NCBI GenBank assembly: GCA_963976285.1
Contig: CAXBJY010000008.1
Location: 14,414-78,413, forward strand
Source: an uncultured Gammaproteobacteria bacterium
GTDB lineage: Bacteria > Pseudomonadota > Gammaproteobacteria > Ga0077536
Direction of reading: 5' to 3'
DNA: 64,000 bases
The notes under the pieces are model-generated. The model saw only the letters and a program-made list of their open reading frames with translations. It was not told the DNA's origin and did no database searches. Of the stretch, positions 45,185 through 64,000 are shown piece by piece. Numbering within the stretch: the first letter of the stretch is position 1; every line of letters begins with the position of its first letter. Both the position numbers and the translations under genes were made by a program.

Positions 45185-45218
45185 CGGGCACGGTCCTCGT
45201 CATCTGTGTTTGAGCGTT

Positions 45219-46967: not shown

Positions 46968-46977
46968 GCTCCCGTTC

Positions 46978-47580: not shown

Positions 47581-49139
47581 TCGCCGCTCCTGCGCAGGCG
47601 TTCGACGTCGTCACGCGAGAGCCCCGCGCCGGCGCCCTTGAGGCGCCGGGAGTGGATCTGATCGAGACCATACAGTTCGTCCGCGAGTGGCGTGTGCGCG
47701 TTGTACTTGACCCAGGTTTCACACAGGTGACGGTATTTGTCCGTGCACACCTGCGGCACGAACTCGCGCGCGCGGCGATTGTATTCCGCGAGCCCGAGCA
47801 CCCCGGCCGAGGTCGTGTAGCGATCGATTTTCGGCGGCAGATGCGTGATCCCGGGCTGCAGTTCACCGCACGTGCGCGTGAAGTTGCCGTCGGCGAGGAT
47901 CGAATACGGGATGTGCGAGTACACGCGGGTCGGCGCGTTCGAATGCTTCATCATGTTGTAGCCGTGCAGTTGCTGCGACGGGTTCGAGATATAGCCGACG
48001 AGTTCGCCGAGCACGGCGTTCGCGTACTCGTCATTGAACAGCGGCCGGAAACGCTCGGCGCGTTCGTCGACCATCATCCAGTCTTCCACCGCGTAGACCC
48101 CGGCGACGTGCGCGAGATCCTTGACGATGCCGAAGTACACCATCGCCCCGGCGTCGATCATCTGATCGCGCGACCAGCCGGCGATCCGCCGCCACAGTTT
48201 CGACGTCGCGTCTTTCACCCGCACGGTCAGATCCTCGAACGCCTCGGTGAGCGTTTCGCGGCTGTCCATGGCCACGGGGACGTAACCTTCCGTGAGTACA
48301 TCGGACGTGTACAGGCCCACCCCGACGACATGGTGTGCCTTGAACTCGGGCTCCGATTCGAACGAACCCCAGTCGTCCATCAGGTAGAAATGACAGCCTT
48401 CGACGGCCATCGGCACGGTGAGGTTGTTGTACGGCACGTCGGCGGCGACGTCGTCGAGCCAGGGAAAGTCGCTCTCCGAAAGATCCATGTAATCGCGCAC
48501 GATCATCTCGCGCGTGTCCGACAATTTATACGGCCCGGAATTATGCAGGCTCACCCGGCTTTCGCAGGAAATGAGGAAGCCGTACTGCGATGCCGCCGCC
48601 ATGAACGCCTGCGCGGCGGTATGCAGGCGATCGCCCTCGCGGCATTCATACATATCGGCGTGAAACACCTGCAGCCGGCGTTCCGGCAGCAGTTGCGCGC
48701 GATGACCGTATTCGCTGTTTGTAATGTGACCGTCGTTGCGGTGCCAGGAGAGCTGAAAGCGCTTCCAGAAATCCATCACCGTAATGAGGTCTTCCACCGC
48801 GTCCGTCGGCCTGAGCAAGCCCATGTTCATGAGCAGTTCGCGCCCGAGCAGGTAGAACGACAAGCCCCAGCCCATGCTCGGGTTCTGGATCTTGATCCCC
48901 ATGTTGCGCGCGCGATCGCCGATGTCCTCGGCCGGCAGCGCGCGATCGATTTTGCGCAGCAGCTCCGGGTAGCGATAGAACGCCATCATGTAGGACAGCA
49001 ACATGTACGGCGACACGGGGAACAGTTTCGACTCCTGCACCGTGCGGGTGAGGCACAGCCAGTACGTCTCGTCCGCGAGTTGCTGGATCAGCGTGTTCGT
49101 CTCGAGCAGTTGTTCGTAGCTGATCCGCTTGTCGGTCAT
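47577..49139 (-). CDS. hypothetical protein (~520 aa; no recognisable domain); start uncertain (ATG 49139 or GTG 49160)
   Basis: Coding-like, aromatic-rich composition (MTDKRISYEQLLETNTLIQQLADETYWLCLTRT…); embedded between the two PEP-utilizing-enzyme modules. Confidence 0.5.
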   Translation of the reverse strand: MTDKRISYEQLLETNTLIQQLADETYWLCLTRTVQESKLFPVSPYMLLSYMMAFYRYPELLRKIDRALPAEDIGDRARNMGIKIQNPSMGWGLSFYLLGRELLMNMGLLRPTDAVEDLITVMDFWKRFQLSWHRNDGHITNSEYGHRAQLLPERRLQVFHADMYECREGDRLHTAAQAFMAAASQYGFLISCESRVSLHNSGPYKLSDTREMIVRDYMDLSESDFPWLDDVAADVPYNNLTVPMAVEGCHFYLMDDWGSFESEPEFKAHHVVGVGLYTSDVLTEGYVPVAMDSRETLTEAFEDLTVRVKDATSKLWRRIAGWSRDQMIDAGAMVYFGIVKDLAHVAGVYAVEDWMMVDERAERFRPLFNDEYANAVLGELVGYISNPSQQLHGYNMMKHSNAPTRVYSHIPYSILADGNFTRTCGELQPGITHLPPKIDRYTTSAGVLGLAEYNRRAREFVPQVCTDKYRHLCETWVKYNAHTPLADELYGLDQIHSRRLKGAGAGLSRDDVERLRRSGE

Positions 49140-49149
49140 CGTCGGGTGC

Positions 49150-49905
49150 TCAGGCTTCACCGGCGCGCGCGTGACGCCAGATCCGCGCCGTCATCGCGAT
49201 GCCCTGCTGGTAGGCTTCGGCCGTTTTCGCCGCCGCGGTCGTCTCCATGATGACCGTATCGCCCTCGATGATGTCGGCCACTTTCGCGTTCATGAAACAC
49301 GGGATGCCGTATTCGCGGGTGAGGATGCCGAGGTGTGAGCGCACCGTGCCGCCGGCGCAGATCACCCCGGCGAACTGCTCGAGGATCGGCGCGGTTAACG
49401 TGCCACCGGAATCGTCGATGACGGCAATCGTGCCGGGTGGCACGCCGTCGCTCAGGTATTTCAGCACGCGATCGCTCGAGCGCAGGTAGCGCGCCGTGCC
49501 CGTCGTGTACTCGGGATAGCCGACGACGTTATCCCCGATCCCGCACAACACCCGGCCGTCTTCGTCGGTTTCCGGGGTCGGCGCTTCCGGGTGGGCAAAA
49601 CTGAATTGCGTCGCGTCGTCGTCGAGCCCCTCGGCGGGCTTGTACGCCTCCGGTCGCTCGCGGACCGAGGCGAGCGCGGACCAGTCGTAGCGATGGCCGA
49701 GTTCGAGCAGGCGCGCATCGATTGCGCGCAGGGCCCCGGCGTCGATCACGGACGGCGCACTGCCGAACACGAACGCGTCCCAGGTTTCACCGCTCGTCGC
49801 GAGATGTTCGCGCACGCGGGTTTTGATGGCGGCATGGAAGGCCTCGACGATGGCGAATTCAGCTTCGTCGCCGTACTTGTCCCCATCGTTGTAGTGGCTC
49901 GCCAT
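49150..49905 (-). CDS. PEP-utilizing-enzyme mobile (phosphohistidine swivel) domain protein with ~150-aa N-terminal region of unknown function
   Basis: Met 80 of track ORF 49150..50142 (MASHYNDGDKYGDE…). C-terminus …ICAGGTVRSHLGILTREYGIPCFMNAKVADIIEGDTVIME… = PEP-utilizers domain. Confidence 0.6.
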   Translation of the reverse strand: MASHYNDGDKYGDEAEFAIVEAFHAAIKTRVREHLATSGETWDAFVFGSAPSVIDAGALRAIDARLLELGHRYDWSALASVRERPEAYKPAEGLDDDATQFSFAHPEAPTPETDEDGRVLCGIGDNVVGYPEYTTGTARYLRSSDRVLKYLSDGVPPGTIAVIDDSGGTLTAPILEQFAGVICAGGTVRSHLGILTREYGIPCFMNAKVADIIEGDTVIMETTAAAKTAEAYQQGIAMTARIWRHARAGEA

Positions 49906-50300
49906 GGCATCCCCATCGATCCGCTTGAACCCGTCCGCCCGGCGCTGCTCGCGGCTCTTGATTGTGCGCGAACGGGGTCCGGCAGGATGTCGTAGTTTGG
50001 AATTCGTGTCAAACCTGATAGGACGATATTGTCCTACAATCCGGACCATACCGGGTGCCAAAATCGCCCGCCTCGCGACCCCGCTCGCACCGCTCCCGCG
50101 ACCCTGGCCATGGCCATGAAGCCGGCGCACGAACGCCGCCAATCACCGCCGCCGGGTACCTGCCAGCCGCCCCGCCAGCGCGCGCGGGTACCGCCGTTGG
50201 CACGGGCTGCCAAAGCGCCGCGGTAGCGCCACCGGCCACCGCCCCGGCGCAACTTGAACGGCGCGTTCTTCGCCGTGAGAATAGGTGAGCGAAACTTCCA

Positions 50301-51122
50301 ATGGAGATCGAGCACATGGCCAGCAGCGCCGCCGCAACCGCCAGCCCCGCAGTCCCCGTGATCCGCACGGATAACGCCGGGATCACGCAATTGATGCTGA
50401 ACGACCCGGACAAGTACAACACGCTGTCGCGCGAAGTCATCGACGACATGCTCACGCATCTCGACAACATCGCCGCCGATGAATCGGTGCGCGTGGTCGT
50501 GATCGCGGCCCGCGGCAAGGCGTTTTGCAGCGGTCACAACCTGAAGCAGATGCACGCAAACCACGATCGGGCCTACTACGAGGCCCTGCTGACGGACTGC
50601 TCGCGCATGATGCAGAGCATTGTTGCGCTGCCGCAGCCGGTGATTGCCCGGGTGCAGGGCATCGCCACGGCGGCCGGTTGCCAGCTCGTCGCGAGCTGCG
50701 ATCTCGCCATCGCCGCGGCGAGCGCCGCGTTCGCCACGAACGGGATCAACAACGGCCTGTTCTGCGCCACCCCGGCGGTGGCCGTCAGCCGCACGGTCGC
50801 GCGCAAGCACGCGCTCGAAATGCTGCTCACGGGCGATTTCGTCGACGCAGCGCGGGCGGCGGACATCGGCCTCGTCAATCACGTCGTCCCCGATGACGAA
50901 CTCGATGCCGCTATCGACGCGCTCGCGGGCAAACTCGCCGGCCAGTCGCAGTATGCGCTGCGTCTCGGCAAGGCCTCGTTCAATCGCCAGTTGCACGAAC
51001 CGCTCGACCGCGCGTATCGCGGCGCCGCGAGCGATCTCGTGTGTAACCTGCTCGCCGACGACGGGGTCGAGGGGGTCACCGCGTTTCTCGAGAAACGTAA
51101 ACCGCGGTGGCAGAACGACTAG
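50301..51122 (+). CDS. enoyl-CoA hydratase/isomerase family protein
   Basis: …VVVIAARGKAFCSGHNLKQM…, …VIARVQGIATAAGCQLVASCDLAIAA… (crotonase fold oxyanion-hole segments). Confidence 0.8.
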   Translation: MEIEHMASSAAATASPAVPVIRTDNAGITQLMLNDPDKYNTLSREVIDDMLTHLDNIAADESVRVVVIAARGKAFCSGHNLKQMHANHDRAYYEALLTDCSRMMQSIVALPQPVIARVQGIATAAGCQLVASCDLAIAAASAAFATNGINNGLFCATPAVAVSRTVARKHALEMLLTGDFVDAARAADIGLVNHVVPDDELDAAIDALAGKLAGQSQYALRLGKASFNRQLHEPLDRAYRGAASDLVCNLLADDGVEGVTAFLEKRKPRWQND

Positions 51123-51394
51123 CAGGCCGGCAGCATCGAACCCGTCGCGTTGCGCGCAGAACATATATATAAAGACGCCGCGCGGCGAACACGACAACGC
51201 CGACAGCGCCGACAGCGCTGCCCCCGGCACCCGGGCGGCGGGGTCGCGGCGCTTATCGAGGACGTTGACGTCAGTCATCGATAATTTTTCCGGCTGAATG
51301 TCGCTCCTCGCGCCCAGGAATGCGTAATAATGGCTCCCGGCGCGAACCCATTCAGTCACCAGGATCGCCTCTACTAAGAAATCGGACCGACACC

Positions 51395-53038
51395 ATGAGC
51401 ACATCGACAAACATCTACGAACAAGACCTGCCGAAGGTTGAAGCGAACTACACCCCGCTGTCGCCGCTGAGTACGATCGAGCGCGCGGCCTCCGTGTATC
51501 CCACCCAGCTTGCCGTCGTCCACGGCGATCGCGAGTTCACGTGGGCGGAAACGTTCGCGCGCTGCCGCCAGCTCGCCTCCGCGCTGAGCCAGCGCGGGAT
51601 CGGCCTCGGCGACACGGTCGCCGTACTCGCGACGAATATCCCGGCGTTCTACGAAGGCCTGTTCGGGATCCCGGCCACGGGCGCCGTGATCAACCCGATC
51701 AACATCCGCCTCGATGCCGAAGCCATCGCGTTCATTCTCGACCACGGCGAAGCGAAGGTGCTGTTCACGGATACGGAATTCGCGCCGGTCGTGAGCGAGG
51801 CGCTGAAAATCTGCAAAGTGAAACCGCTCGTGATCGACATCGCCGACGAAGCGGCGCATTGCCACGACCGGATCGGCGAGATCGAATACGAGGACTTCAT
51901 CGCGGCCGGCGATCCGGAGTATCCATGGGAACTGCCGAAGGACGAATGGCAGGCCATCGCGCTGTGCTACACGTCCGGCACCACCGGCAACCCGAAGGGC
52001 GTGGTCACGCATCACCGCGGCGCGTACCTGAATGCGATTGGCAACATCATGGCGTGGACCCTGCCGCACAACCCGGTGTACCTGTGGACCTTGCCGATGT
52101 TTCATTGCTGCGGCTGGTGCTACCCGTGGTCGATCGCGATGCAGGGCGGCACGAACGTATGCCTGCGACGGATCGCGGCGGCGGATATCTACGACGCGAT
52201 CGACCGCCACGGGGTGACGCATTTCTGCGGCGCGCCGATCGTGCTGAATTTCATCGTCAACGCGAGCGAAGAAGAAAAGTGCGTGCCGAAGACCCCGATC
52301 AACGTGATGACCGCCGGGGCCGCGCCGCCGGCGGCGATCCTGAAATCGATGGCCGATCAGGGCTTCAAGGTGACGCACGCCTATGGCCTGACGGAAGTTT
52401 ACGGCCCGGCCGTGTTCACGGCGCACCAACCGTCGTGGGATTCGCTGTCGAGCCTCGAACTCGCGGAAAAACGCATCCAGCAGGGCGTGCGCTACAACGT
52501 GCTCGAGGATCTCGACGTGCTCGACCCGGAGACGATGAAGCCCGTGCCGCGTGACGGCGAGACGATCGGTGAAATCATGTTCAAGGGCAATGTCGTCATG
52601 CGCGGTTATCTGAAAAACCCGAAGGCGACGCAGGAATCGCTCGCGGACGGCTGGTTTCACTCCGGCGACCTCGGGGTGATGCACCCGGAGAACTATATCC
52701 AGCTGAAGGACCGCTCGAAGGACATCATCATTTCCGGCGGCGAGAATATCTCCTCGATCGAAGTCGAAGAAGTGTTGTACAAACACCCGCACGTGCTCGA
52801 AGCCGCCGTCGTCGCGCGGCCGGACGAAAAGTGGGGCGAGACGCCGTGCGCGTTCGTGGCCCTGAAACCATCGGCACCGGACGTGAGCGCGGACGAGCTG
52901 ATCAAGTATTGCCGCGAGCACATCGCGCACTTCAAAGCGCCGAAGACGATCGTTTTCCGCGAACTGCCGAAAACCTCGACCGGCAAGATCCAGAAATTCA
53001 AACTGCGGGTTGAAGCCGACGAGATGGGATCGCTGTAA
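51395..53038 (+). CDS. AMP-dependent synthetase/ligase (acyl-CoA synthetase)
   Basis: Met within track ORF 51320..53038. …YTSGTTGNPKGV (AMP-binding motif), …YGLTEV…, …GWFHSGDLG…, …ELPKTSTGKIQK (C-terminal Lys motif). Confidence 0.8.
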   Translation: MSTSTNIYEQDLPKVEANYTPLSPLSTIERAASVYPTQLAVVHGDREFTWAETFARCRQLASALSQRGIGLGDTVAVLATNIPAFYEGLFGIPATGAVINPINIRLDAEAIAFILDHGEAKVLFTDTEFAPVVSEALKICKVKPLVIDIADEAAHCHDRIGEIEYEDFIAAGDPEYPWELPKDEWQAIALCYTSGTTGNPKGVVTHHRGAYLNAIGNIMAWTLPHNPVYLWTLPMFHCCGWCYPWSIAMQGGTNVCLRRIAAADIYDAIDRHGVTHFCGAPIVLNFIVNASEEEKCVPKTPINVMTAGAAPPAAILKSMADQGFKVTHAYGLTEVYGPAVFTAHQPSWDSLSSLELAEKRIQQGVRYNVLEDLDVLDPETMKPVPRDGETIGEIMFKGNVVMRGYLKNPKATQESLADGWFHSGDLGVMHPENYIQLKDRSKDIIISGGENISSIEVEEVLYKHPHVLEAAVVARPDEKWGETPCAFVALKPSAPDVSADELIKYCREHIAHFKAPKTIVFRELPKTSTGKIQKFKLRVEADEMGSL

Positions 53039-53119
53039 CGCGCGACCACCCGGGGTGAATGCGGGCGCGACGTAAACCGCAGCGCCTGCAGGCCCCCCCG
53101 GGAAGACAACGCAACGTCC

Positions 53120-53145
53120 CCTCCCCTTCAACCGTGAAGGGGAGG
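53120..53145. terminator. GC-rich hairpin CCTCCCCTTC-AACCGT-GAAGGGGAGG between convergent AMP-ligase and hlyD genes (no U-tract)
   Basis: Perfect 10-bp inverted repeat seen directly; compositionally related to the 35725-35751 hairpin. Confidence 0.4.
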
Positions 53146-53213
53146 AACTCCCCAAGGGTATCAACCCCGACACGAACCCGACGCCCGCCTGGCACGGCAT
53201 CCGAACCGCGGCG

Positions 53214-54566
53214 TTAACGCTCACGAAAACCCTCGTCGCGGTAGCGCAATAACGGCGCGGCGAGGAATTCGATCAGGCGGCGGCGACCGAGTTTGATCTC
53301 CACCGTCACCGCCATCCCCGGCGCGAGATTCGCGACCCGGTCGGCGGTCTCGATCGTCGTGCGCTCGAGGCTCACTTGCGCCGGATACACGAGCCCCTGC
53401 TTCTCATCCGCGATCGCATCGTGCGCGACATGTGTAATGCGGCCGTCGATCGTGCCGTATTGCGTGAACGGGAACGTCTCGACCTTGATCTCCGCGTGCT
53501 GGCCCGCGCGCACGAAGCCGGCGTCGCGGTTCGTGACGAACGCCTCGACGACGAGCGCGCCATCGAGCGGCACGAGCAACATCAGTTGTTCCGCCGGGGT
53601 GACGACTCCGCCGATCGTATGCACGGAGAGCTGGTGCACCGTGGCCGCCTCCGGCGCGCGCAGAACGCGCTCCCGGATCTGCATTTCCGCCTTGCCGATC
53701 TCGGGTTCGATCGCGGCGAGTTCCGTTGCGAGCGTTGCCCGCGATTCGATCAGCCGCGAGCGTTCGCCGGCGGCGAGCGCGCGCAAACGCCTTAGCAAAC
53801 CGGCATGCGCGGCATCGAGCGCGGCGAGGCGCGCGCCGACGATACCGCGCTCGCGCTCGGTTTCGAGTCGCGGGATCTCGAGTTCAAACCAGCTCGCGCG
53901 CGACGCGAGCGAACGCGCTTCGAGTTGTGCCAGCGCGTTCGCGCGTTCCGTGAGCAGCGGCAAGGTCGCGTCGAGCATGGCAAGACGCCGTTCGCTGGCG
54001 AGACGTTCCGCGCGGTTCTCCGCGGCCGCGTCCTCGAGTGCCGCGCGCTCGGCGTAATGCGCTTCGAGCTGGCTGTCGATGCGGCGCCGGATCGCCATCG
54101 GCGTGGCCGCGATCGCCACGTTCAGTGGATGCCCGGGCGCGCGATCGAGGTAAGCGGCCGCGGTCGGGAACGCCGCGAACGCGCGTAACTGCAATTCCAG
54201 TGCGCGCAGTTCCGCGGCCATCGCATCGCGCGCAACGCGCAGGCGGCGCAAGTCGGCGCGAGATTTCTCGTCGTCGAGCTGGATCAGCGGATCGCCGGCG
54301 GCGACCGTCTCGCCTTCGCGCACATGGATCGCACTGACCACCCCGGCCTCGAGCGGCTGCACCGTCTTCACCCTGCCGGTGGGGACGATCCGGCCTTGCG
54401 CGACGGCCACGACATCCACCCGCCCGAGCACGGACCAGCCGAGCGCGAACGCAAACAACGTCATCACGCTCCACAGGATCGCGCGCGACGCCGGCAGCGG
54501 CGGCGTGTGTTCCACTTCGAGCACGGCCGGCAGAAACGCGCAAGACTCACGCGAGCGGGACATCAC
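53214..54566 (-). CDS. HlyD family type I secretion periplasmic adaptor subunit
   Basis: N-terminal TM, long coiled-coil (…RALELQLRAFAAF…), C-terminal beta-barrel/lipoyl-like …VTVEIKLGRRRLIEFL…. Confidence 0.8.
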   Translation of the reverse strand: MMSRSRESCAFLPAVLEVEHTPPLPASRAILWSVMTLFAFALGWSVLGRVDVVAVAQGRIVPTGRVKTVQPLEAGVVSAIHVREGETVAAGDPLIQLDDEKSRADLRRLRVARDAMAAELRALELQLRAFAAFPTAAAYLDRAPGHPLNVAIAATPMAIRRRIDSQLEAHYAERAALEDAAAENRAERLASERRLAMLDATLPLLTERANALAQLEARSLASRASWFELEIPRLETERERGIVGARLAALDAAHAGLLRRLRALAAGERSRLIESRATLATELAAIEPEIGKAEMQIRERVLRAPEAATVHQLSVHTIGGVVTPAEQLMLLVPLDGALVVEAFVTNRDAGFVRAGQHAEIKVETFPFTQYGTIDGRITHVAHDAIADEKQGLVYPAQVSLERTTIETADRVANLAPGMAVTVEIKLGRRRLIEFLAAPLLRYRDEGFRER

Positions 54567-54594
54567 TCGCCCCCTGGATGCGCGGCGTGAAGCA

Positions 54595-56733
54595 TCACCC
54601 TGCGGGCTCGGCCTGCAGGCGCACGAGTTCAGCGTAATAACCGTCCCGCGACACGAGCTCCGCGTGACTGCCGCACTCGACGATACGACCGTCGTCGATC
54701 ACGATGATCCGGTTCGCGGCGCGCACGCTGCTGAGGCGGTGCGCGATCAGGAACACGGTGCGACCGCCGCAGATCCGGCGCAGGTTACGCCGGATCACGG
54801 CTTCCGATTCGACGTCGAGCGCACTCGTCGCTTCGTCGAAAATGAGGATCCGCGGATCCGTGATCAGCGCCCGCGCGATCGCGATCCGCTGGCGTTGTCC
54901 GCCGGAGAGATTGCTGCCCTGTTCGCCGACGATCGTGTCGTAACCGGCCGGCAGATCGAGAATGAAGTCGTGGGCGCCGGCGAGTTCCGCCACGTGCATG
55001 ATCCGTTCGAGCGGCAGGGTCGGATCCGTGATCGCGATATTCTCGCGCACGCTGCGGTTGAACAGCCGGTTCTCCTGCAGCACCACCCCGATGCGACGGC
55101 GCAACCACGCGCTGTCGACGAGCGCGAGATCGATCCCGTCCACGAGCACACGCCCCGCGCCCGGTACGTACAGGCGCTGGATCAGTTTCGCGAACGAACT
55201 CTTGCCCGAGCCCGAACGGCCGACGATGCCGATCATCTCGCCCGGCGCGACATCGAGCGTGATGTCGCGCAACACGTCCGGCCCGTCCGGGCGATAGCGG
55301 AACGTGACCGCCTCGAACGTCACCCGCCCGCGAACGTCCGGCAGCGAAGCGCGGCTCGACACGGCGGCGGGTTCCGCGGGCGCGTTCAGAATGTCGCCGA
55401 GGCGACGCAATGAAATCGCCGCTTGCTGGAAGTCCTGCCACAACTGCACGAGGCGCAGGATCGGTCCGGACACGCGCGCCGCGATCATATTGAACGCGAC
55501 GAGTTGACCCACCGTAAGCGCGCCGTCGATCACGAGCCGCGCGCCGAACCACAGGATCCCGAGGATCATCAGCTTGTTGGTCAAACCCGCGATCTGGGCC
55601 GCCACGTTCGACAGGTTCGTCGCGCGGAAACTCGCGCCCACGTAGGCCGCGAGGCGTTCTTCGAAGCGCCGTTGCGTGGCCGGCTCGATCGCGCCGGCCT
55701 TCAGCGTTTCGATGCCGCTGACGGCTTCGACGAGATAGGCCTGGTTGTCGGCCCCGCGATCGAATTTCTCGTTCAGCCGATGACGCAACACCGGGGTCAC
55801 GAACAGCGCGAGCGCGATGTAGCACGGCAACGTGGCCACAACGACGATGGTCAACATCGGGCTGTAGGCGAACAACACGGCGAAGAACACGAGCGTGAAC
55901 GTGACATCAACAATGAGCGTGAGCGCGGAACCGGTGATGAAATTGCGCAACGTTTCGAGTTCGCGCACCCGCGCGACGACATCGCCCACCCGGCGCGCCT
56001 CGAAATACGCGAGCGGCAGGCGCAACAAGTGCCGGAACAGCTCGGCCCCGAGCGCGACGTCGATCCGGTTCGCCGTGTGCGAGAACACGTACGCGCGCAA
56101 CCCGCCGAGCCCGGCATCGAACAGCGACACGACGAGCAGCCCGAACGCGAGCAGATCGAGCGTGGTGAGACTGCGGTGCACGAGTACCTTGTCGACGACG
56201 ACCTGGAAGAACAGCGGCGTGACGAGCGCGAACAACTGCAGAAAGAACGACGCGAGCAGCACTTCCGAAAAATAGCGCCGGTACTTCAGGATAAACGGCG
56301 CGAACCAGGCGAGGTTGAACTCGCGCCGCCCGCTGGCTATCCCGGCGCGGCGGGTGAGCAGGATCAGCTCACCGTTCCACTGCGACTCGAACTCGGATTT
56401 CGAGATCTCCCGCGGCGCCGGATCGCACGGATCCCGGATCAGCAACCTGTCGCCGCCGATCGCCGCGAGCGCAACGAAGCGATCGTCGTCCAGGCCAACG
56501 ATGCACGGACACACCGCGTCGTGGAGACGCCGGCGGGCCGCACGCATCCGGCGCGAGCGCAAGCCGAGCCAGCGCGCCGCGCGCACGATGTCGGCACTTG
56601 TGAAGCAGCGATCATGCGCGGCGAACTCGTGCTTCAGTTCATGCGGATTCGCGCGCACTTCGAGGAAACGCGCGATCAGCACGAGACTCATCAATCCGGT
56701 ATCCGCATCCTGCGGAGTTGCGTGTGCCTCCAT
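54595..56733 (-). CDS. type I secretion system permease/ATPase (HlyB-like) with N-terminal C39-like domain lacking the catalytic Cys (CLD type)
   Basis: Met 45 of track ORF (MEAHATPQDADTGLMSLVLIARF…). Six-TM ABC exporter core; Walker A GRSGSGKSS, signature LSGGQRQRIAIARAL, Walker B ILIFDEATSALD. Confidence 0.8.
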   Translation of the reverse strand: MEAHATPQDADTGLMSLVLIARFLEVRANPHELKHEFAAHDRCFTSADIVRAARWLGLRSRRMRAARRRLHDAVCPCIVGLDDDRFVALAAIGGDRLLIRDPCDPAPREISKSEFESQWNGELILLTRRAGIASGRREFNLAWFAPFILKYRRYFSEVLLASFFLQLFALVTPLFFQVVVDKVLVHRSLTTLDLLAFGLLVVSLFDAGLGGLRAYVFSHTANRIDVALGAELFRHLLRLPLAYFEARRVGDVVARVRELETLRNFITGSALTLIVDVTFTLVFFAVLFAYSPMLTIVVVATLPCYIALALFVTPVLRHRLNEKFDRGADNQAYLVEAVSGIETLKAGAIEPATQRRFEERLAAYVGASFRATNLSNVAAQIAGLTNKLMILGILWFGARLVIDGALTVGQLVAFNMIAARVSGPILRLVQLWQDFQQAAISLRRLGDILNAPAEPAAVSSRASLPDVRGRVTFEAVTFRYRPDGPDVLRDITLDVAPGEMIGIVGRSGSGKSSFAKLIQRLYVPGAGRVLVDGIDLALVDSAWLRRRIGVVLQENRLFNRSVRENIAITDPTLPLERIMHVAELAGAHDFILDLPAGYDTIVGEQGSNLSGGQRQRIAIARALITDPRILIFDEATSALDVESEAVIRRNLRRICGGRTVFLIAHRLSSVRAANRIIVIDDGRIVECGSHAELVSRDGYYAELVRLQAEPAG

Positions 56734-57136
56734 GGCCGATCCGTGATCCTTGCGTGCTGTTTGCAACGGGCGATCGTTGCGTGATCGCGCGCAACCCGCG
56801 TTCGAGCGGGCTGCAGCTTGCGTGGGATTGAATCTAGCGCGCCCCGTTGCGCGACGCCCAGACACGAGGACGCGTAATGATCGATGCGCGAAGCACGGTA
56901 ATTAACTGAACACCCGACGGAATCACCCGGGCTCCCGTCGCGCCGGTACTGCCGCGCCGAACGCACAAGGACCAATTCCCGGCACCGGCCGTCGCAAACC
57001 CGCGCGCAATGATTGCCAGCGGGACCCGCACCGCCGTTCGCGGCACCCGGCAACCCGACGCGGCCAAACCGGCGCCCGTAGTTCCCGTAACACAAATTTT
57101 GTATGCTGCCAGCCCCATTCGCATTGAGGCGAACCG

Positions 57137-57688
57137 ATGCTGGAAATCGATTTTTCCGGTCCCTGGGCGTTGCTGCCAAACGCCGACAACGTGCCCTACC
57201 TGCTGGCAGCACCCGCGGCGTGGGGGCCCGGTATCTACCTGTGGACGTTTCTGTTCAACCAGGCGCACCGGATGAACCGGATCGAAGCCGTGGGGGACAG
57301 CATCGCGGCGCGACACGAGGAAACCCTCGCCGCATTTCTCGCCGGCAAACGCACCGTGTATCGCGCCGCCGAACTCGACGCGGGCACGTTGATCCCGGCG
57401 TATTCCCCGACGGACGATCGCGACGCGTTCATCGCGGCCTACCCCGATGTTATGCATCACGTCTCGAGCCTGCGCGTGTTCTACGCGCCGTACGACGGCG
57501 ACGATGCAATGCGCGAACGGATCGCCATCGCACTCACGGCGCACTTCCATCGCCTCGGCGGCAAAGCCATCGCGTGGCTGGAGAACGAACCGGTAAGTTA
57601 CGATGCAAACGCTGACGCAAACCCGATAACGCTGCGCATCGGCAGACCCGCCTTCGTCGCCAGCCTGCCGGACGAAATGCACCTGTAA
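57137..57688 (+). CDS. hypothetical protein (183 aa)
   Basis: Coding-like high-GC ORF (MLEIDFSGPWALLPNADNVPYLLAAPAAWGPGIYLWTF…); no recognised motif. Confidence 0.45.
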   Translation: MLEIDFSGPWALLPNADNVPYLLAAPAAWGPGIYLWTFLFNQAHRMNRIEAVGDSIAARHEETLAAFLAGKRTVYRAAELDAGTLIPAYSPTDDRDAFIAAYPDVMHHVSSLRVFYAPYDGDDAMRERIAIALTAHFHRLGGKAIAWLENEPVSYDANADANPITLRIGRPAFVASLPDEMHL

Positions 57689-57772
57689 TATGCGGCAACG
57701 ACAATGCGCGCGTTCGCCACGCTGCGCGATAGTGATGAATCAACACGGGGAACGGCGCCTGTGATCCGCCTC

Positions 57773-58183
57773 ATGATCCTGGCGCTCACCCTGACATCCC
57801 TGGTCGGCTGCACCAGCCCCCCGAACCCACAGCTGAACGCGTTCACCACGGACGGCTGCAGCAGCTTCCCCAACGGCACCCGCGATAACAAAACCCTGTG
57901 GCTGCACTGCTGCACGGCACACGACGTCGCCTATTGGCAGGGCGGCACGCGCGAAGAACGTCGCGCGGCGGATTTCGCGCTGCGTGAATGTGTGGGCGCG
58001 ACCGGCGAGACGACGATTGCGAACCTGATGCTGGCGGGGGTGTGGATCGGTGGGTCGCCGTATTTGCCGACGTCGTTTCGGTGGGGGTATGGGTGGCCGT
58101 ATCCGCGGGGGTATGGGGCGTTGGATGGGGAGGCGCGGGGGATGGTGGTGGAGTTGTTGGAGGCGTATCGGCGTAGTCGGTGA
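57773..58183 (+). CDS. hypothetical lipoprotein with Gly/aromatic-rich C-terminus
   Basis: Met 24 of track ORF 57704..58183. MILALTLTSLVGC lipobox; …CSSFPNGTRDNKTLWLHCCTAHD…. Last host-composition gene before the low-GC island. Confidence 0.5.
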   Translation: MILALTLTSLVGCTSPPNPQLNAFTTDGCSSFPNGTRDNKTLWLHCCTAHDVAYWQGGTREERRAADFALRECVGATGETTIANLMLAGVWIGGSPYLPTSFRWGYGWPYPRGYGALDGEARGMVVELLEAYRRSR

Positions 58184-58604
58184 CTCGGTTTACTTTCGTT
58201 GCGGGTGCTGCGAATTGGGACGATACGGATAGGCGCGGCGCGCCTGCATGCGGCGCTCGGCTTCGTTGAGCAAACTGCGGAGATACTTGCAGACGAAACC
58301 GCTCTGTGGGGCGGCTTTCATGAGCCGGGTTTTATCAGATGCTTGTTACCGGACTATGGATTAACGCGACGCAACAGCATCCCGCTGATCCCCTCCGAAG
58401 CTTCCCGAAACGCTGCATTGCAATATTTTCTGGCTCTTCAACTGCGACTTCTTGCAGATGAGAAATCCTGCTATCTTCTGTGCCAGTAGCGTTCCGGGAT
58501 TGACGTGATATGCAGATTCTACATAGAGCAGCAGTACGTCGTTCTGCGTATTTCGAGTATGCGTAATTTCTCTAAACCGCTGTTAGGCGGTAGGAGCAGA
58601 AGTA

Positions 58605-58844
58605 TTGTCGCGTAATAATCGTTACCTCCCGATACTAATGGGCTTTGGATCTTTTGCGCTGGCCATATGGCTTGCTATGGGTCATGTATCGTGGTGGAAA
58701 GCTATTCTCGGCGCCCTACTGCTTATGTTTGGTTGGGGTTCATTAAGAACGGGAATTAGCGCTTCGGATGAGGAAATTGAAGAATTGACCTCGCCGAAAC
58801 CTTTATCTGAAAGTACGAGGAAAAAATTCGAAGAACGATTTTGA
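58605..58844 (+). CDS. small membrane protein (79 aa, 2 predicted TM helices, charged C-terminal tail)
   Basis: TTG start with AGGAG SD 8 nt upstream (internal ATG at 58638 lacks SD). MSRNNRYLPILMGFGSFALAIWLAMGHVSWWKAILGALLLMFGWGSL…. Confidence 0.5.
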   Translation: MSRNNRYLPILMGFGSFALAIWLAMGHVSWWKAILGALLLMFGWGSLRTGISASDEEIEELTSPKPLSESTRKKFEERF

Positions 58845-58860
58845 AACGAATGCAGCAGAG

Positions 58861-59151
58861 ATGAATCCAGCATTATTGATAACAGCGGCCGGCCCTATTC
58901 TTGGGGCAATCGGTCTGTATGGGGGAATCGACTGGCTATTTTGGTCAGGAATAGTCATAGCACTACTAGCGTTGTTTCTGAATTTGGCTTCCGGAATATT
59001 GAAAGCACCTGTACTGCCCGGACTGTGCGTAGTCGTGGGTGCGGCGGCGATAACCCCCTGGTATCACGGTGCCGGAGTCGGGCTTCTAGTTTGGACGGCG
59101 TTGGAAACCGCCGGAGAAATTGTGGGCCTTCGCAAAGAAGGCAGACTATAA
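58861..59151 (+). CDS. small membrane protein (96 aa, 3 predicted TM helices)
   Basis: MNPALLITAAGPILGAIGLYGGIDWLFWSGIVIALLALFLNLASGIL…; 16-nt gap from the upstream small TM gene (same cassette). Confidence 0.5.
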   Translation: MNPALLITAAGPILGAIGLYGGIDWLFWSGIVIALLALFLNLASGILKAPVLPGLCVVVGAAAITPWYHGAGVGLLVWTALETAGEIVGLRKEGRL

Positions 59152-59158
59152 ACGTGCC

Positions 59159-59268
59159 GCCTAAAAAACGCTGCAGTCCAACCCATTACAGTGCGCTTTT
59201 CCAGCGTACCTTCGGATTTTCCCGCTTCCAAAGCGCACTGCAACGGGCTGCATCGCGCGGCGTTAGAT
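59159..59268. repeat. attC-like imperfect palindromic element 1 (GCCTAAA…CAGTGCGCTTT…AAAGCGCACTG…GTTAGAT)
   Basis: Perfect 11-bp core inverted repeat 59189-59199/59230-59240. Outer arms GCCTAAAAAACGCTGCAG vs CTGCATCGCGCGGCGTTAGAT also partly complementary; ends in the GTTAGAT core 14 nt before the next ATG. Confidence 0.45.
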
Positions 59269-59281
59269 TACGCGCACACCT

Positions 59282-61042
59282 ATGATTCTGCCTGACGTGA
59301 CACGCGTCCTTGAATCCTTTACGGCGTCGGGCGAAGCTGAGGCTATCTCTATAACAGGCGATTGGGGCGTAGGGAAAACGTACTACTGGAGGTCATTCGT
59401 TGGTAGCTTGAGTCAAAGAAACGACCTTCAATTCACAAAGTATTCGTATGTATCTTTATTCGGGCTGTCATCCCTGCCCGAAGTACGTGACGCGATATTT
59501 GACAATGCAGTTCCTTCCGAAGAGATTTCGGCTGAGCCGTCGCTCTCTTCTTTCTTCGGAAATCTAGCTGCGATTACCGATTCCGGAGGCGCGCTTTTCG
59601 CAATCAAGGGCGTTTTCTCAAGAGCTCGGAAGCACTTAGGAACTATAGAGAAGGTGCCCGCAATTAGCAGGGTTTCTCCATTTCTACGAGCCGCGTCCTA
59701 CTTCGCCATATCGAACTATTTGGTCTGCCTAGATGATGTTGAACGCAAAGGTGAAGGTCTCTCCGGCCGCGACCTCTATGGATTAATTTCCCACCTTAAA
59801 GAGCGGCGGAATTGCAAGGTTGTGATAATCCTAAATTCCGATTCACTAGATGAATCGGAGCGTAGCGAGTATGACCAGTTTCGGGAAAAAGTATTTGATA
59901 TCGAGATGTCGTTCCGTCCTACCAAAGCAGACTGCATCAGCTTGGTTTTTGGAGATGGCTCAGATGTATCGGTGAAAGCCATCCGCTACTGCGGCGAACT
60001 TGGAATTAACAACATTCGGGTCCTGAAACGGATCCATCGAAATTTGAACTATCTGCTCCCGTTCACGGAAGGTCTAGACCCCCTACTAGAAGAACAGATC
60101 TTCCATTCAACGGTGTTACTAACATGGAGTTACAACAGCCGACAAGCCGACGCACCGGATTACGATTTCGTGAAGAAACTTGGCGTTGCGGATATGTTTT
60201 CGCTAGACGTCGAAACAACCGAGGACGACACCGAAGAAAAGGAATGGCGAGACCGACTTTGGAACTACAAATACACGTCATCGGATGAGATTGATTTAGA
60301 AATCTGTAGATTCCTCGAAAATGGGTACTTAGATAGCGATCTGTTTCGCACCGTGCTTAACCAAAAAAACAAAGAACTTACCCAGACTCATACCAGGAAT
60401 AAGTTTGAGGCGGCATGGCGTTTATTTCACGATTCGTTTAATGATAATGAAGCGGAGTTTATTGAAGAGCTGTCGAGGGCGTTTCATGAAAGCGCGAGAT
60501 GGATTAGCCGCGCTAATGTCGACGCCGCCGTCCGGATATTGCGCGACCTAGACCGATCTGAGCTAGCAGACAAATTCATCGCCCATTGGATCGACGTGCA
60601 ATCTAGAGAAAACGCCTCATCTCTAACAGCAGAGCCAGATCATTTTGATCGGGAAATAAGAGACGAATCGTTGCGTGTCGCGATCGAGAACGCTGCCGAT
60701 CAAAACATGCCGATCCCGACTCTCGATGAGATTGTTCCTAGGATTGCCGGTAATGAAGGTTGGGGACAAAAAGATGAGGAGTTCTTGTCAACTGCGTCCG
60801 TTGACGATTTCTACTATTACTTCAAAAGGACAGAAGATCGAAATCTGACGACTTACGTAAGGACATGTCTGAAATTTGGCCAGTTCCTCAATCCAACTGG
60901 GCCGATGCGAACAATATCGGGGAAAGCGATAGAAGCGCTCAGGCGGATAGAAAGTGAATCCAAGCTCAATGAACTGCGCATTCGTAAATTCGGGTTAGGC
61001 ACCAAACCGGATGACGCCCGCGTCGACAAACAATTGGATTAA
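59282..61042 (+). CDS. KAP-family P-loop NTPase (586 aa)
   Basis: N-terminal Walker A ITGDWGVGKTYYW and Walker B LVCLDDVER, characteristic of KAP NTPases; large helical C-terminal region. Confidence 0.65.
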   Translation: MILPDVTRVLESFTASGEAEAISITGDWGVGKTYYWRSFVGSLSQRNDLQFTKYSYVSLFGLSSLPEVRDAIFDNAVPSEEISAEPSLSSFFGNLAAITDSGGALFAIKGVFSRARKHLGTIEKVPAISRVSPFLRAASYFAISNYLVCLDDVERKGEGLSGRDLYGLISHLKERRNCKVVIILNSDSLDESERSEYDQFREKVFDIEMSFRPTKADCISLVFGDGSDVSVKAIRYCGELGINNIRVLKRIHRNLNYLLPFTEGLDPLLEEQIFHSTVLLTWSYNSRQADAPDYDFVKKLGVADMFSLDVETTEDDTEEKEWRDRLWNYKYTSSDEIDLEICRFLENGYLDSDLFRTVLNQKNKELTQTHTRNKFEAAWRLFHDSFNDNEAEFIEELSRAFHESARWISRANVDAAVRILRDLDRSELADKFIAHWIDVQSRENASSLTAEPDHFDREIRDESLRVAIENAADQNMPIPTLDEIVPRIAGNEGWGQKDEEFLSTASVDDFYYYFKRTEDRNLTTYVRTCLKFGQFLNPTGPMRTISGKAIEALRRIESESKLNELRIRKFGLGTKPDDARVDKQLD

Positions 61043-61134
61043 GCGGTCGTGTTTCAGCGCGCTTCCTTCCGCCGGATCCGCATTTTCACCTACACGAAAC
61101 GCGCTGAAACACGCCGATTATCCAAGCGTTAAGT
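61028..61134. repeat. attC-like imperfect palindromic element 2 (arms TTGGATTAAGCGGTCGTGTTTCAGCGCGC / GCGCGCTGAAACACGCCGATTATCCAAGC, ending in GTTAAGT)
   Basis: Perfect 14-bp core inverted repeat 61048-61061/61100-61113 extending to ~28 bp with bulges. Left arm overlaps the KAP gene stop codon. Inner GCGGATCCGC palindrome. GTTAAGT core at 61128-61134. Confidence 0.5.
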
Positions 61135-61152
61135 TTCTTTTGAGATTGAAAT

Positions 61153-62250
61153 ATGCGAGTTCTAGTTTTTGACACGAACGCCTTTGTCCAAGACTTGGGG
61201 CTAGAGGGTCATGCATTTCAGCTGCTGCTCTTGCATTTAAATGTCGTGACTGACCTAGTCGCGTTTCCGATTGTGGTACTACAAGAAACCTCGAATAAGT
61301 ATGAGGAGTTCCTGCGCAAGGTCGTCTCTGATGCGAAGAAAGCGTCTGAGCGATTCGAAAGACTTACTGGAACGGCACTAGAGCCGCCCGACCCAAGAAT
61401 AGTTGTTGAATCTATTTCTCAGTACCGCGCAAAGCTCATGTCGAAGTTTGGCGGCCTCGCTGAAGCATTCCCCTATCCGTCTATAGATCACGAATCTGTC
61501 GTTCAAAGGGCCATCCTTCGAAGGCGTCCTTTTCAAGATTCCGGGGCCGGGTACAGAGACACGATAATCTGGGAGTCGATTCTAGAAATTGCCGACAAGC
61601 CGGACATCGATTCCATTATTTTTATTACTAACAATTCGAAAGACTTCCTGGCCGAAGACCGGCTGGCACCAGACCTTATAGAAGACTTGAGAGAGCGGGG
61701 GCACCCAGACTCCTTAATTCGCACTTACGGGACGGTGAAAGCCCTCGTTGATGCTGAGATCCTGCCAAGCATCGAACAATTTAGTGAAGTAGCAACGCTC
61801 ATAGAAGAACGCAATATTCCCGGCATTGATTTCGACGCTTGGTTGCAAGATGCCTTGTTCGATTGCGTGCCGGCGGCCGATGCAGCGCGGGCGATAGCAG
61901 GGATAGCCCCCGGTGATGCCGATACAGAGCTATCTGAAATCTATGAAATCAAAGAATTCAAGGTAGAGCATGGCTATCCGCTCCCAAACGACGAGCACTA
62001 TCTAATTGTGTCCGTATTCGCAGGCGTTGGCGTGAACGTTTGCGCCAGCTGGGTGCAATACGGTGATTCGCTCGCGGTCACCGAATTGTTTGACTGTGAG
62101 GGAACGGGCCAACCAGCGCCTTACGCGTGTGTATATGCCGGAGAAGTTATTTGGATCACTTTATCCCTCGTGGTTCATTCATTAGTTCCGTTTACCTGGT
62201 CTGTTGAAATCATTTCCGTTGAGTCGACAGGAAGCGAGTCGGAAACCTAA
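61153..62250 (+). CDS. PIN-like nuclease domain protein with ~185-aa C-terminal domain of unknown function (365 aa)
   Basis: MRVLVFDTNAFVQD (first PIN acidic residue), …VVLQETSNKY… (Glu), …IIFITNNSKDF… (distal Asp pair) within the first ~180 aa. Confidence 0.55.
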   Translation: MRVLVFDTNAFVQDLGLEGHAFQLLLLHLNVVTDLVAFPIVVLQETSNKYEEFLRKVVSDAKKASERFERLTGTALEPPDPRIVVESISQYRAKLMSKFGGLAEAFPYPSIDHESVVQRAILRRRPFQDSGAGYRDTIIWESILEIADKPDIDSIIFITNNSKDFLAEDRLAPDLIEDLRERGHPDSLIRTYGTVKALVDAEILPSIEQFSEVATLIEERNIPGIDFDAWLQDALFDCVPAADAARAIAGIAPGDADTELSEIYEIKEFKVEHGYPLPNDEHYLIVSVFAGVGVNVCASWVQYGDSLAVTELFDCEGTGQPAPYACVYAGEVIWITLSLVVHSLVPFTWSVEIISVESTGSESET

Positions 62251-62261
62251 TAAATGGCTCA

Positions 62262-62343
62262 ATATGCCGCGTTACAGCGCGCTTCCCTCAGGCGGATCCG
62301 TATTTTCGCCTCCCCAAAGCGCGCCGAAATACGCAGGTTATCT
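62262..62343. repeat. attC-like imperfect palindromic element 3 (…CGCGTTACAGCGCGCTTCCCTCAGGCGGATCCGTATTTTCGCC…GCGCGCCGAAATACGCAG-GTTATCT)
   Basis: About 75% identical to element 2 over the central region (CAGCGCGCTTCC…GGCGGATCCG…ATTTTC…GCGCGC…GAAA). Ends with GTTATCT (imperfect core) 15 nt before the next start. Confidence 0.45.
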
Positions 62344-62357
62344 GAGCCTTAGAACTC

Positions 62358-63134
62358 TTGGCGGAAATTATGGCGCAATCAAACCGGAAGCAATACGGCG
62401 AAGCACAGAACGTCGCGCTGACTTCACAGGTCGGCGGCGTTTGCCCGCGCTGCGACGAGCCGCTTTTCTACAAGAAAATGGGCAAAAGTTTTAAAGCGTA
62501 TGAGGTAGCGCACATCTACCCCCTAAACCCCACCCCCGAAGAAATCGAACACCTTAAGGACGAGCCTAGACTTAGCCAAGACGTGAATGATGAAGATAAC
62601 CTGATTCCTCTCTGCAAGAGCTGTCATGGCAAGTTCGATAAGCCTCGGACAGCTGAAGAGTATCGGCAACTCGTCGAACTCAAGAAGCGCTACATCGCGC
62701 GTTCAGGCCAAGAGATATTGTGGTCTTCGCATCATCTTGAGTCTGAGATCCGCAGTGTCATCGAGGCGCTTTATGAGGAACACTTCATCGGGGCTTCAAC
62801 CGCTGTAATTGAGTACGAGCCAGCTACAATCGATGAAAAGGTCGATGACTCGATAACGAGACCTACCGTCCGAAAGATCAAGAATAACGTCAGTGATTAC
62901 TTCACGTTAATCAAGACTCATTTTTCTGAAATTGACAAGACCAATCCGAATTTTTCAGACATAGTGTCGCTACAGGTCAAGACATACTTTCTGAAGCAGC
63001 AACAGTTGGGGGTAGATAAACAAGCGATCTTTGACAATTTAGTTTCCTGGGTGCGTGTAAAAACTAAACCCCGAAGTATTGATGCTGCCGAGATATTGGT
63101 TTCGTTTTTCATCCAGAATTGCGAGGTGTTTTGA
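62358..63134 (+). CDS. HNH-family nuclease domain protein (258 aa) with C-terminal helical domain
   Basis: TTG start (internal ATG at 62370). CPRCDEP…AHIYPLNP…NLIPLCKSCHGKFDK = CxxC…H…N…CxxCH HNH zinc-finger nuclease signature. Confidence 0.65.
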   Translation: MAEIMAQSNRKQYGEAQNVALTSQVGGVCPRCDEPLFYKKMGKSFKAYEVAHIYPLNPTPEEIEHLKDEPRLSQDVNDEDNLIPLCKSCHGKFDKPRTAEEYRQLVELKKRYIARSGQEILWSSHHLESEIRSVIEALYEEHFIGASTAVIEYEPATIDEKVDDSITRPTVRKIKNNVSDYFTLIKTHFSEIDKTNPNFSDIVSLQVKTYFLKQQQLGVDKQAIFDNLVSWVRVKTKPRSIDAAEILVSFFIQNCEVF

Positions 63135-63355
63135 TGATTGTTCCCACCAAGTTCACCTCCCTAGACAAGAGCGCCTTAGGCAAATCACCAATCGTGTTGC
63201 AAGCTTTCGATCGTCCGGTTTCGGCTCACAGCTTATACAAACTCGTAGACCGCCAATTCGAGGACGTTGGCGAATTCTTGTTTACGCTTGATGTTCTGTA
63301 TGTCCTGGGATCGATTCGCCTCGACACAGCTACAGGGATGGTAGAAAAATGCTGA
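63134..63355 (+). CDS. 73-aa hypothetical protein, translationally coupled between the HNH and ATPase genes
   Basis: ATG overlaps the TGA of the HNH gene (TGATG). Its own stop overlaps the ATPase start by 7 nt. MIVPTKFTSLDKSALGKSPIVLQAFDRPVSAHSLYKLVDRQFEDVGEFLFTLDVLYVLGSIRLDTATGMVEKC. Confidence 0.45.
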   Translation: MIVPTKFTSLDKSALGKSPIVLQAFDRPVSAHSLYKLVDRQFEDVGEFLFTLDVLYVLGSIRLDTATGMVEKC

Positions 63356-64000
63356 AAGCAATCTCGTGTATAAAATTTAGCCAGGAGACGATCAGTTTCA
63401 AACCTGGCCTGAACGTTGTTGTTGGCGATGATCTGGCGACAAATTCGATCGGTAAATCTACTTTGCTGATGGTAGTAGATTTTGTCATGGGCGGATCTGA
63501 TTTCCTTGTTCACAACAACGATGTTGTGGCTGAGCTCGGCGATCATGCCTACCGCGCTGCGTTCGATTTTGTCGGCGAATCTTACTTTTTTCGCCGTGAT
63601 ACAGCGACGCCTGATGTAGTGGACCTTTGCGATAAGTCGTGGAAGGTCATTGAGGCGCTCACCATTCAGGACTATCGAGAGCGTTTAACTACCCTGTATG
63701 GCCTGAATGACGTCGGCCTAAGCTTTCGGCAGATCTGTGCTCCGTTTTCGAGAATCTGGGGAAAGCAGAACCTAAACCCTGCAAGGCCGTTAGATGCGCA
63801 TCTCAAACAATCGGCCGCAGATTCGCTGTATCTAGCGCTCAAGTTATTCCAGAAATATGACGAAGTGGAAGATCTAGAGGGGGCGCTGAAAAGCGTTCAA
63901 AACAAGGCGAGTGCACTAAATTCCGCGTTTCGCGAACAGGTTGTTCCGAGGATCACCAAGAGGAAATATAACGACAACTCTAGAAACATTTCGGAGCTCT
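63349..64000 (+). CDS. ABC/SMC-type (AAA_15/23-like) ATPase, N-terminal 217 aa only (runs off window end)
   Basis: Own translation: MLKAISCIKFSQETISFKPGLNVVVGDDLATNSIGKSTLLMVVDFVMGG… = N-terminal Walker A region typical of defense-associated ABC ATPases. No stop before position 64000, so absent from the ORF track. Confidence 0.6.
   Translation, partial: MLKAISCIKFSQETISFKPGLNVVVGDDLATNSIGKSTLLMVVDFVMGGSDFLVHNNDVVAELGDHAYRAAFDFVGESYFFRRDTATPDVVDLCDKSWKVIEALTIQDYRERLTTLYGLNDVGLSFRQICAPFSRIWGKQNLNPARPLDAHLKQSAADSLYLALKLFQKYDEVEDLEGALKSVQNKASALNSAFREQVVPRITKRKYNDNSRNISEL

Follow-up and report, generated by a model that had tools for sequence, protein, structure and literature searches.

The right-hand end of the 64-kb stretch of gammaproteobacterial DNA analyzed here (hereinafter the window, which always denotes the whole stretch) holds a low-GC island of four gene blocks separated by a family of imperfect palindromes. 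This island is very probably a chromosomal integron-type cassette array without a neighboring integrase, that is, a CALIN (attC sites clustered without an integron integrase), which spans window 58.35–64.0 kb and runs on to ~65.07 kb. In its GC-rich host (~65%), the array occupies a fixed site flanked by two host genes. Its GC content per kilobase is 0.47–0.52 over 58–64 kb, as against 0.62–0.71 for the first 58 kb; the step, located on the source contig between window 58.3 and 58.4 kb, takes the level from ~65% to ~50%. An earlier description made from the letters and their open reading frames (ORFs; hereinafter the sequence-only reading) had accordingly noted a real fall, while setting the preceding level at 68% and the step at about 58.2 kb. 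All sizeable ORFs to the right of the step lie on the + strand in four blocks, as that reading had also proposed, except that the fourth block most likely starts at the ATG at 62370 (from the gene call on public contigs) and not at the TTG at 62358. A further contig, L001, carries the window sequence with an offset of 52369 and adds ~9 kb to the right, thereby giving access to the part of the array that the window end cuts off.

With their limits set by the G|TT rule, the four cassettes extend over 58583–59262, 59263–61128, 61129–62348, and 62349 to ~65060, with all their genes on the + strand. The first contains two ORFs for predicted membrane proteins, one of 79 residues (58605–58844, taken from the ORF list; no match in Pfam or PADLOC) and one of 96 residues (58861–59151; no family match, homologs at 54–65% identity). 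The second codes for a 586-residue KAP-family P-loop NTPase-like protein (59282–61042), which is recovered by PDC-S49, a candidate defense family of PADLOC (E = 1.6e-21), and shows a weak match, under the cut-off, to the Pfam KAP_NTPase family. The third codes for a 365-residue PIN_12-domain protein, a predicted nuclease (61153–62250; Pfam PIN_12, E = 6e-23). The fourth comprises the three genes of an ABC-3C system: an effector combining an HNH nuclease with a CTD11 domain (62370–63134; Pfam CTD11, E = 1.4e-26, and HNH_2; PADLOC PDC-M68A), the middle component MC7 (63134–63355; Pfam MC7, E = 1.4e-14), and the ATPase (DUF2326; PADLOC PDC-M68B, LmuB-like), which starts at 63349 and is cut by the window end at 64000. 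According to the gene calls on L001, the ATPase gene reaches window-equivalent 64968 and is directly followed by a further palindrome (el4, see below). Judging from these family matches, the KAP-like NTPase (PDC-S49), the PIN_12 nuclease, and the three-gene ABC-3C system look like anti-phage defense cargo. Promoter-like sites are sparse throughout, with two in the island against 5.9 expected from shuffled sequences, and none in the gaps between the units.

Each of the three gaps between the blocks holds one of a set of related imperfect palindromes of ~108 nt (el1–el3); the perfect cores cited for them in the sequence-only reading are present, as is the CGGATCCG motif. We interpret these as the attC sites of the first three cassettes, in different states of preservation and all on the + strand. 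The attC of cassette 1, el1 (59160–59268), is partly decayed, with GCCTAAA as its R'' box (AAC changed to AAA), a shifted register of the L box, and an intact R' box GTTAGAT. That of cassette 2, el2 (61026–61134), is the best preserved, running from R'' GACAAAC to R' GTTAAGT with both the AAC and GTT triplets kept. That of cassette 3, el3 (62245–62354), is decayed at either end, with R'' ACCTAAT (AAC changed to AAT) and R' CTTAGAA (GTT changed to CTT). A further decayed site, el4, lies at window-equivalent 64967–65066 on L001, with AGATAAT and ATTATGA at the positions homologous to the two R boxes. The four sites are spaced by 1866, 1220, and 2712 nt; the R'' box stands 14 nt before the stop codon of the preceding gene (el2), on it (el3 and el4), or 9 nt after it (el1), and the R' box 13–18 nt ahead of the next start. 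Mutual identity among el1–el3 is 50–71%; el2 and el3, exactly 1220 nt apart, are 71–75% identical in register (75% over 103 nt), and el1 has its central and right parts in common with both.

As DNA bottom strands, el1–el3 fold with energies of –25 to –33 kcal/mol and z-scores of –3.6 to –4.7 (–3.6 for el1, –4.7 for el2), which is better than any of 200 shuffles; the suggested bottom-strand folding is thereby borne out, and in el2 it comes complete with R and L boxes. In the el2 fold the AAC and GTT triplets are paired with each other, and the extra bases sit on the R''/L'' arm, the same arm as in control folds of real attC sites. From left to right the site reads GACAAAC (R''), AATTG, GAT (L''), a T bulge, a 6-nt stem with one mismatched position, another T bulge, a stem of 14 bp, ATC (L', completing the GAT:ATC L box), CAAGC, and GTTAAGT (R'). 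Only el2 appears to retain every canonical attC feature, and in el1 and el3 the register of the extrahelical-base region is disturbed. Three of the four blocks have a perfect GTTRRRY core 13–18 nt ahead of their start (GTTAGGC at 58582, GTTAGAT at 59262, and GTTAAGT at 61128). As the + strand of the island has nine such cores, the chance of at least three of four being placed in this way is ~2e-4. The sequence-only reading had assigned a core to every block; the one named for the fourth, GTTATCT, is off consensus, and the homologous position in el3 is instead CTTAGAA at 62348–62354.

The attC sites were scored with a surrogate covariance model of our own (R2), which is distinct from the attc_4 model of IntegronFinder and yields rough E-values. 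For its construction ten class 1 integron loci were read, a seed model was set up in which the R boxes, L boxes, and stem were paired, and the 29 class 1 cassette sites recovered with this seed were realigned and used to rebuild the model as R2, the aadA1 attC sequence having been verified in 2,515 plasmids before model building. The model generalizes, in that R2 recovers sites outside its training set, including those of arr-2 (36 bits), a cupin cassette (33 bits), a 127-nt IMP-1 site (31 bits), a 126-nt qnrVC6 site (21 bits), and fos (17 bits). With default filters, neither R2 nor its predecessor R1 produced a match in the window. With the filters off, el2 and el1 emerged as the two best R2 matches in 57–64 kb, both on the + strand and each spanning the whole element.

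The identity of the palindromes becomes apparent from a related strain (L036), which came to light when the host flank proteins were followed into their clusters at 90% identity and in which the same locus lies on a 5.85-Mb contig. Its flanks match window 45193–58586 at 82–88% identity, and homology resumes at L001 19933; between them it carries 6.8 kb of low-GC DNA with entirely different genes, coding for a UPF0167 protein, a deoxynucleoside kinase, several unknowns, and an IS110 element. The region is therefore not syntenic between the strains, and the break falls at the GTTAG core. In this DNA, R2 detects four co-oriented attC sites that follow ORFs, with E-values of 2e-8 to 4e-5 and scores of 40.0, 29.4, 27.4, and 26.8 bits, along with two weak ones, in the same orientation as the window genes. 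The window palindromes el1–el3 align with the four L036 sites almost without gaps and at equal length, at 50–69% identity; el1, in particular, aligns over its full length with L036 attC1 (the 40-bit site) and attC2 at 65–69% identity. The sites of both strains have in common the pattern CCC(A/G)TTACAG(C/T)GCGCTTTTCC ... ATTTTC ... CCAAAGCGC.CTG(T/C)AA(T/C)GGG, and folding seven members of the family to a consensus gives 34 pairs, of which 17 carry compensatory changes. The loops and flanks are as conserved as the stems, and the length is fixed at ~108 nt across the two strains. Since the window repeats are homologous to significantly scoring L036 sites, they count as attC sites themselves. The same alignment identifies GCCTAAA at 59160, which the sequence-only reading had pointed to as a partly recognizable inverse core, as the R'' homolog of el1; GTCCAAC at 59176, offered in its place by the model's own alignment, was accordingly rejected. 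L036 attC1, attC2, attC3, and attC6 keep both triplets, and attC5 has ATCATAC as its R'' box. This last site adjoins an IS110-family transposase gene (L036 3568–4518) situated inside the cassette array. This comparative evidence is decisive, and L036 is its most important part. In its light, the proposal of an integrase-less cassette array, which the sequence-only reading had put forward while leaving the attC assignment unproven, stands, supported by the same-family attC sites of L036, the non-dispersed repeats, and the different content between the same flanks.

The second line of comparison concerns the left boundary of the array, which the sequence-only reading had treated as a mere junction. 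Between the host gene for a 159-residue protein (57704–58183) and the first cassette lie a terminator-like hairpin with a T-run (58312–58337, + strand; a pattern match only, from a consensus scan) and, to its right, a low-GC non-coding stretch of ~245 nt (58345–58588, + strand), which is conserved in L036 and attI-like. It ends in CTCTAAAC-CGCT-GTTAGGC, of which the GTTAGGC core (58582–58588, + strand) would be the point of cassette insertion. Identity to L036 is 82% in the host gene, 71% in the spacer at 58184–58344, 86% in the platform at 58345–58586 (90% over 58345–58540), and 31% from 58587 onward, with the BLAST alignment stopping at 58586, so that strain-to-strain homology breaks inside GTTAGGC. 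On the basis of two features, the likeness of its end to the simple site of attI1 in class 1 integrons (CCCTAAAAC-AAA-GTTAGGC; L025 and L028) and the break in homology at the core, we consider 58345–58588 a candidate attI-like platform. No counterparts of DR1/DR2, the repeats of attI1 that bind the integrase, were recognized in it, and a consensus scan picked up no sigma-70 promoter there. Just ahead of the core, the motif TGCGTA(A/T)TTTC occurs twice, 15 nt apart, and a 12-nt perfect reverse-complement match (CTGCGTATTTCG / CGAAATACGCAG) connects the platform at 58544–58555 with the right arm of el3 at 62325–62336; these may be the remnant of a copy of the family, or binding repeats.

Homologs of individual cassette genes at other loci bear on the same units. 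In L011, a homolog of the PIN gene (86% identity in amino acids and 89% in DNA) is shared with the window without the neighboring repeat bodies: DNA identity is confined to the stretch from 61133 (GTTTC, inside GTTAAGTTTC) to 62253 (CCTAA), with a sharp drop on both sides. Over the stop codon of the PIN gene, a canonical RYYYAAC is found both in L011 (ACCTAAC) and in L010 (GCCTAAC), the latter carrying a homolog of 47% identity, preceded by GTTAGGG 16 nt ahead of its start. The repeats of L010 itself are unrecognised by R2, and we use this locus only for the CCTAAC at the stop and the upstream GTTAGGG. For the 96-residue protein of cassette 1, a homolog (P0132, 65% identity) is encoded by a cassette in an independent array, L034, where it is followed by an attC match of 29.7 bits. 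L034 holds six genes in one orientation, each with a + strand attC match after it, at scores of 29.7 (E = 6e-6), 26.2 (E = 4e-5), 12.3, 8.5, and 5.2 bits; one of these sites starts with ATCTAACAAGCGACTGTG and shares with the repeat after the PIN gene in L011 the first 16 nt of that repeat. The same pair of genes, for proteins of 78 and 96 residues, is also present in L035. A separate observation in L034 is a ~75-nt element (TAACAATAACTT...GTTGTTATYC...GAATGTATGTGAATAATTCGC) that occurs twice (99–170 and 3366–3440), upstream of genes, and that may represent either a promoter or a cassette lacking an ORF.

The search for an integrase covered ~86 kb of sequence. With IntI1 as the query, tblastn returned nothing below E = 0.1 in the window (64 kb), in L001 (to +9 kb), or in L036 (22 kb), in agreement with the sequence-only reading, which had seen no intI in the 400-bp junction or the host-like genes to its left, and no phage-integrase domain (PF00589) occurs among the called genes at the locus. 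The hallmark of a complete integron, an intI with its specific extra domain beside attI and Pc, is likewise lacking at the locus. To the right of el4, L001 carries a CSD-DUF1294 gene, an IS3-family element, and two small ORFs, followed farther on by non-cassette-like genes (LysR, carbonic anhydrase, and SulP), with GC at ~50% to the end of the contig. The strain-specific low-GC stretch thereby continues for ~7 kb past the last recognizable attC (L001 12700–19933, window-equivalent ~65.07–72.30 kb); it also has a PEP-CTERM-like ORF and gives no attC-model match. The IS3-family element within it (L001 13700–14890, window-equivalent ~66.07–67.26 kb) varies among otherwise identical assemblies: the copy in L001 is shortened (ORFs of 88 and 157 residues), that in L002 is fuller (7980–9130; 101 and 244 residues), and L003 has none.

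On the integron model, each unit of the array would consist of one or more ORFs plus a ~108-nt attC of a single local family. By analogy with established integron biology, the bottom strand of the attC would form a hairpin that has extrahelical bases and bears the R and L boxes, the tyrosine recombinase IntI would cut at AAC/GTT and excise circular cassettes, and it would insert cassettes at the GTTAGGC that ends the platform at 58345–58588; the integrase itself would have acted in the past or would act in trans. Because el3 and el4 are without both triplets and el1 without one, we expect the array of the window strain to be mostly frozen, with its cassettes largely immobile, and el2 to be the one site that might still recombine.

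Several observations weigh against the integron interpretation. Three of the four sites are without one or both of the AAC/GTT triplets (AAC in el1, both in el3 and el4), and the 'unpaired central spacer' of el2 is mostly paired in its minimum-energy fold. With filters off, the R2 scores of the window sites are the size of background: 8.4 bits for el2 (E = 1), 8.1 bits for el1 (E = 1.3), 5.3 bits for el4, and no match for el3 down to ~4.6 bits, as compared to six matches of at least 8 bits in 50 kb of host DNA, the best at 13.2 bits. Over 63 kb of host DNA, the best matches are this one and another at 11.9 bits, which comes from the 13-kb host flank of L036, and the model is in this respect specific. 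On score alone the window copies are thus indistinguishable from background, and the same-family copies of L036 stand clear of it (26.8–40.0 bits). Cassettes of 1.9 and 2.7 kb, one of them with three genes, are large for integrons. Finally, homologs of the KAP-family gene (in a Vibrio genome and on a Logan contig) sit in ordinary integrase-bearing islands and not in integrons; as a route to the present locus, these contexts proved uninformative. A CALIN is defined (PMC4889954) by two or more attC sites that share a strand and are spaced by less than 4 kb, with an integron integrase absent from the neighborhood. Counted by homology, the sites of the window show this arrangement; on model score alone the case is borderline. 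A model-based scan would probably overlook the window sites taken by themselves, or rate them as borderline, and it was the related strain that made the assignment secure.

Of the alternatives, the one that survives best accepts the integron nature of the array and disputes that it is a fossil: an IntI encoded elsewhere in the genome or on a plasmid would still work at the orphan attI-like platform and the intact sites, the locus then being a detached part of a working integron. This we regard as possible, if on balance unlikely. It gains from the conservation of the platform (86–90%), which is at least as high as that of the host gene (82%), and from the complete replacement of cassette content, with the break at the core, between two strains that both have no neighboring intI. 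The canonical L036 sites, and the retention of AAC, GTT, and the bulged bases in el2, point the same way, as does the report that about half of CALINs lie on IntI-encoding replicons (Cury et al.; PMC4889954). Against it, the loss of triplets in el1, el3, and el4 argues against recent recombination in the window strain, and the content could also have been swapped by homologous recombination through the conserved flanks. A related proposal, which we hold to be rather doubtful, is that the platform is an orphan attI still receiving cassettes, either via an IntI acting in trans from elsewhere or by whole-array swaps through homologous recombination between the platform and the right flank; this would explain the different cassettes in two strains that are both without intI at the locus. 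In either case, an attI-like platform without intI offers a small, testable lead on how CALINs gain cassettes.

A very improbable alternative is that the palindromes are dispersed repeats from a foreign genomic island, unrelated to integrons and akin to repetitive extragenic palindromes (REP), bacterial interspersed mosaic elements (BIME), enterobacterial repetitive intergenic consensus (ERIC) sequences, or miniature inverted-repeat transposable elements (MITE). As intergenic imperfect palindromes of ~100 nt they do resemble ERIC elements and BIMEs, and the window copies are not significant on the attC model. However, a hidden Markov model of the family (nhmmer) locates copies in the arrays alone, all oriented alike, and detects none across the host DNA covered (58 kb plus 13 kb). 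The further repeat copies that the sequence-only reading had thought worth seeking are thus absent from the other 58 kb of the window, where the weak matches to the central motif were dismissed as chance matches in coding sequence. Scanning 185,579 species genomes and Joint Genome Institute (JGI) metagenomes for the exact cores gave chance matches or the same strain only: seven matches in the species genomes, none with extended similarity, and in the metagenomes one same-strain match (L033) and one chance match inside a coding region (L032). Furthermore, same-family copies score 27–40 bits as attC, and the copies extend from stop codons to a GTTRRRY ahead of the following start. It is just as hard to credit that the hairpins are terminators or RNA-stability elements of an ordinary defense island inserted by another integrase: stable hairpins do directly follow the ORFs, and KAP-gene homologs occur in islands with P4-like integrases, but no T-run follows the stems of el1–el3 and a terminator scan picks up none of them, the loops and flanks are conserved like the stems, with the length constant at ~108 nt in both strains, and the junction, with the strain breakpoint at GTTAG, has no other integrase or tRNA. 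An Rfam scan of 57–64 kb returned noise only.

Turning to the surroundings of the array, no tRNA is present at the junction or on L001, and a megablast search of 52–64 kb against plasmids retrieved only distant host-gene matches. To the left of the island, window 52.5–56.9 kb codes for a host C39-peptidase ABC exporter and an AprE-like adaptor, a pair of the type I secretion or bacteriocin-export kind; between this pair and the array are two small genes that match no family. The island proteins are present identically on several metagenome assemblies. More generally, sequence identical to that of this GC-rich organism occurs in several TARA Oceans and unrelated ENA assemblies (L001–L009 and L033), and this recurrence raises the question of whether it represents a widespread marine strain or a reagent contaminant.

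CALINs are a documented class (PMC4889954), and integron cassettes, both chromosomal and mobile and including those of CALINs, are known to encode defense systems (bioRxiv 10.1101/2024.07.02.601686; 10.1101/2024.07.02.601719). The array described here is a further example of this known kind of element and leaves the current understanding of integrons unchanged. What the locus adds is a chromosomal integrase-less array from a GC-rich bacterium, with a ~108-nt attC family of its own and with sizeable candidate defense genes (PDC-S49, the PIN_12 nuclease, and the three-gene ABC-3C system) that travel as integron cassettes. It also illustrates a route of decay, whereby point changes in AAC/GTT freeze the cassettes and make the array near-invisible to attC models unless a related strain is at hand.

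At the level of the single site, el2 (GACAAAC-AATTG-GAT-T-AAGCGG-T, the 14-bp stem, ... CCGATT-ATC-CAAGC-GTTAAGT) has the order and spacing of the aadA1 attC of class 1 integrons (GTCTAAC-AATTC-GTT-C-AAGCCG-A ... CGGCTT-AAC-TCAAGC-GTTAGGC). Unlike class 1 attC sites, the family has a much longer central part and no sequence kinship with them outside the boxes, and its bulged bases are A on the bottom strand instead of G and T. At the level of the array, the likeness to the CALINs described in 2016 (PMC4889954) includes co-oriented attC sites less than 4 kb apart after ORFs, no intI or recognizable intI pseudogene nearby, a mostly unknown or defense-related cargo, and an insertion sequence beside the array. 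It differs from them in that most of its sites are degenerate and probably under the detection threshold, in the attI-like platform before cassette 1, and in its large cassettes of 1.2–2.7 kb, one of which has three genes. In comparison with the sedentary chromosomal integrons of Vibrio and Xanthomonas, there is no intI beside the insertion site in either strain and the arrays are short, with ~5–6 sites. Like those integrons, nonetheless, it has a fixed location, a homogeneous ~108-nt attC family, strain-specific cassettes, a GC content below that of the host, and a cargo of the anti-phage type (bioRxiv 10.1101/2024.07.02.601686). In its fixed site, its own attC family, and its strain-specific cargo, the array thus also behaves as a small sedentary chromosomal array.

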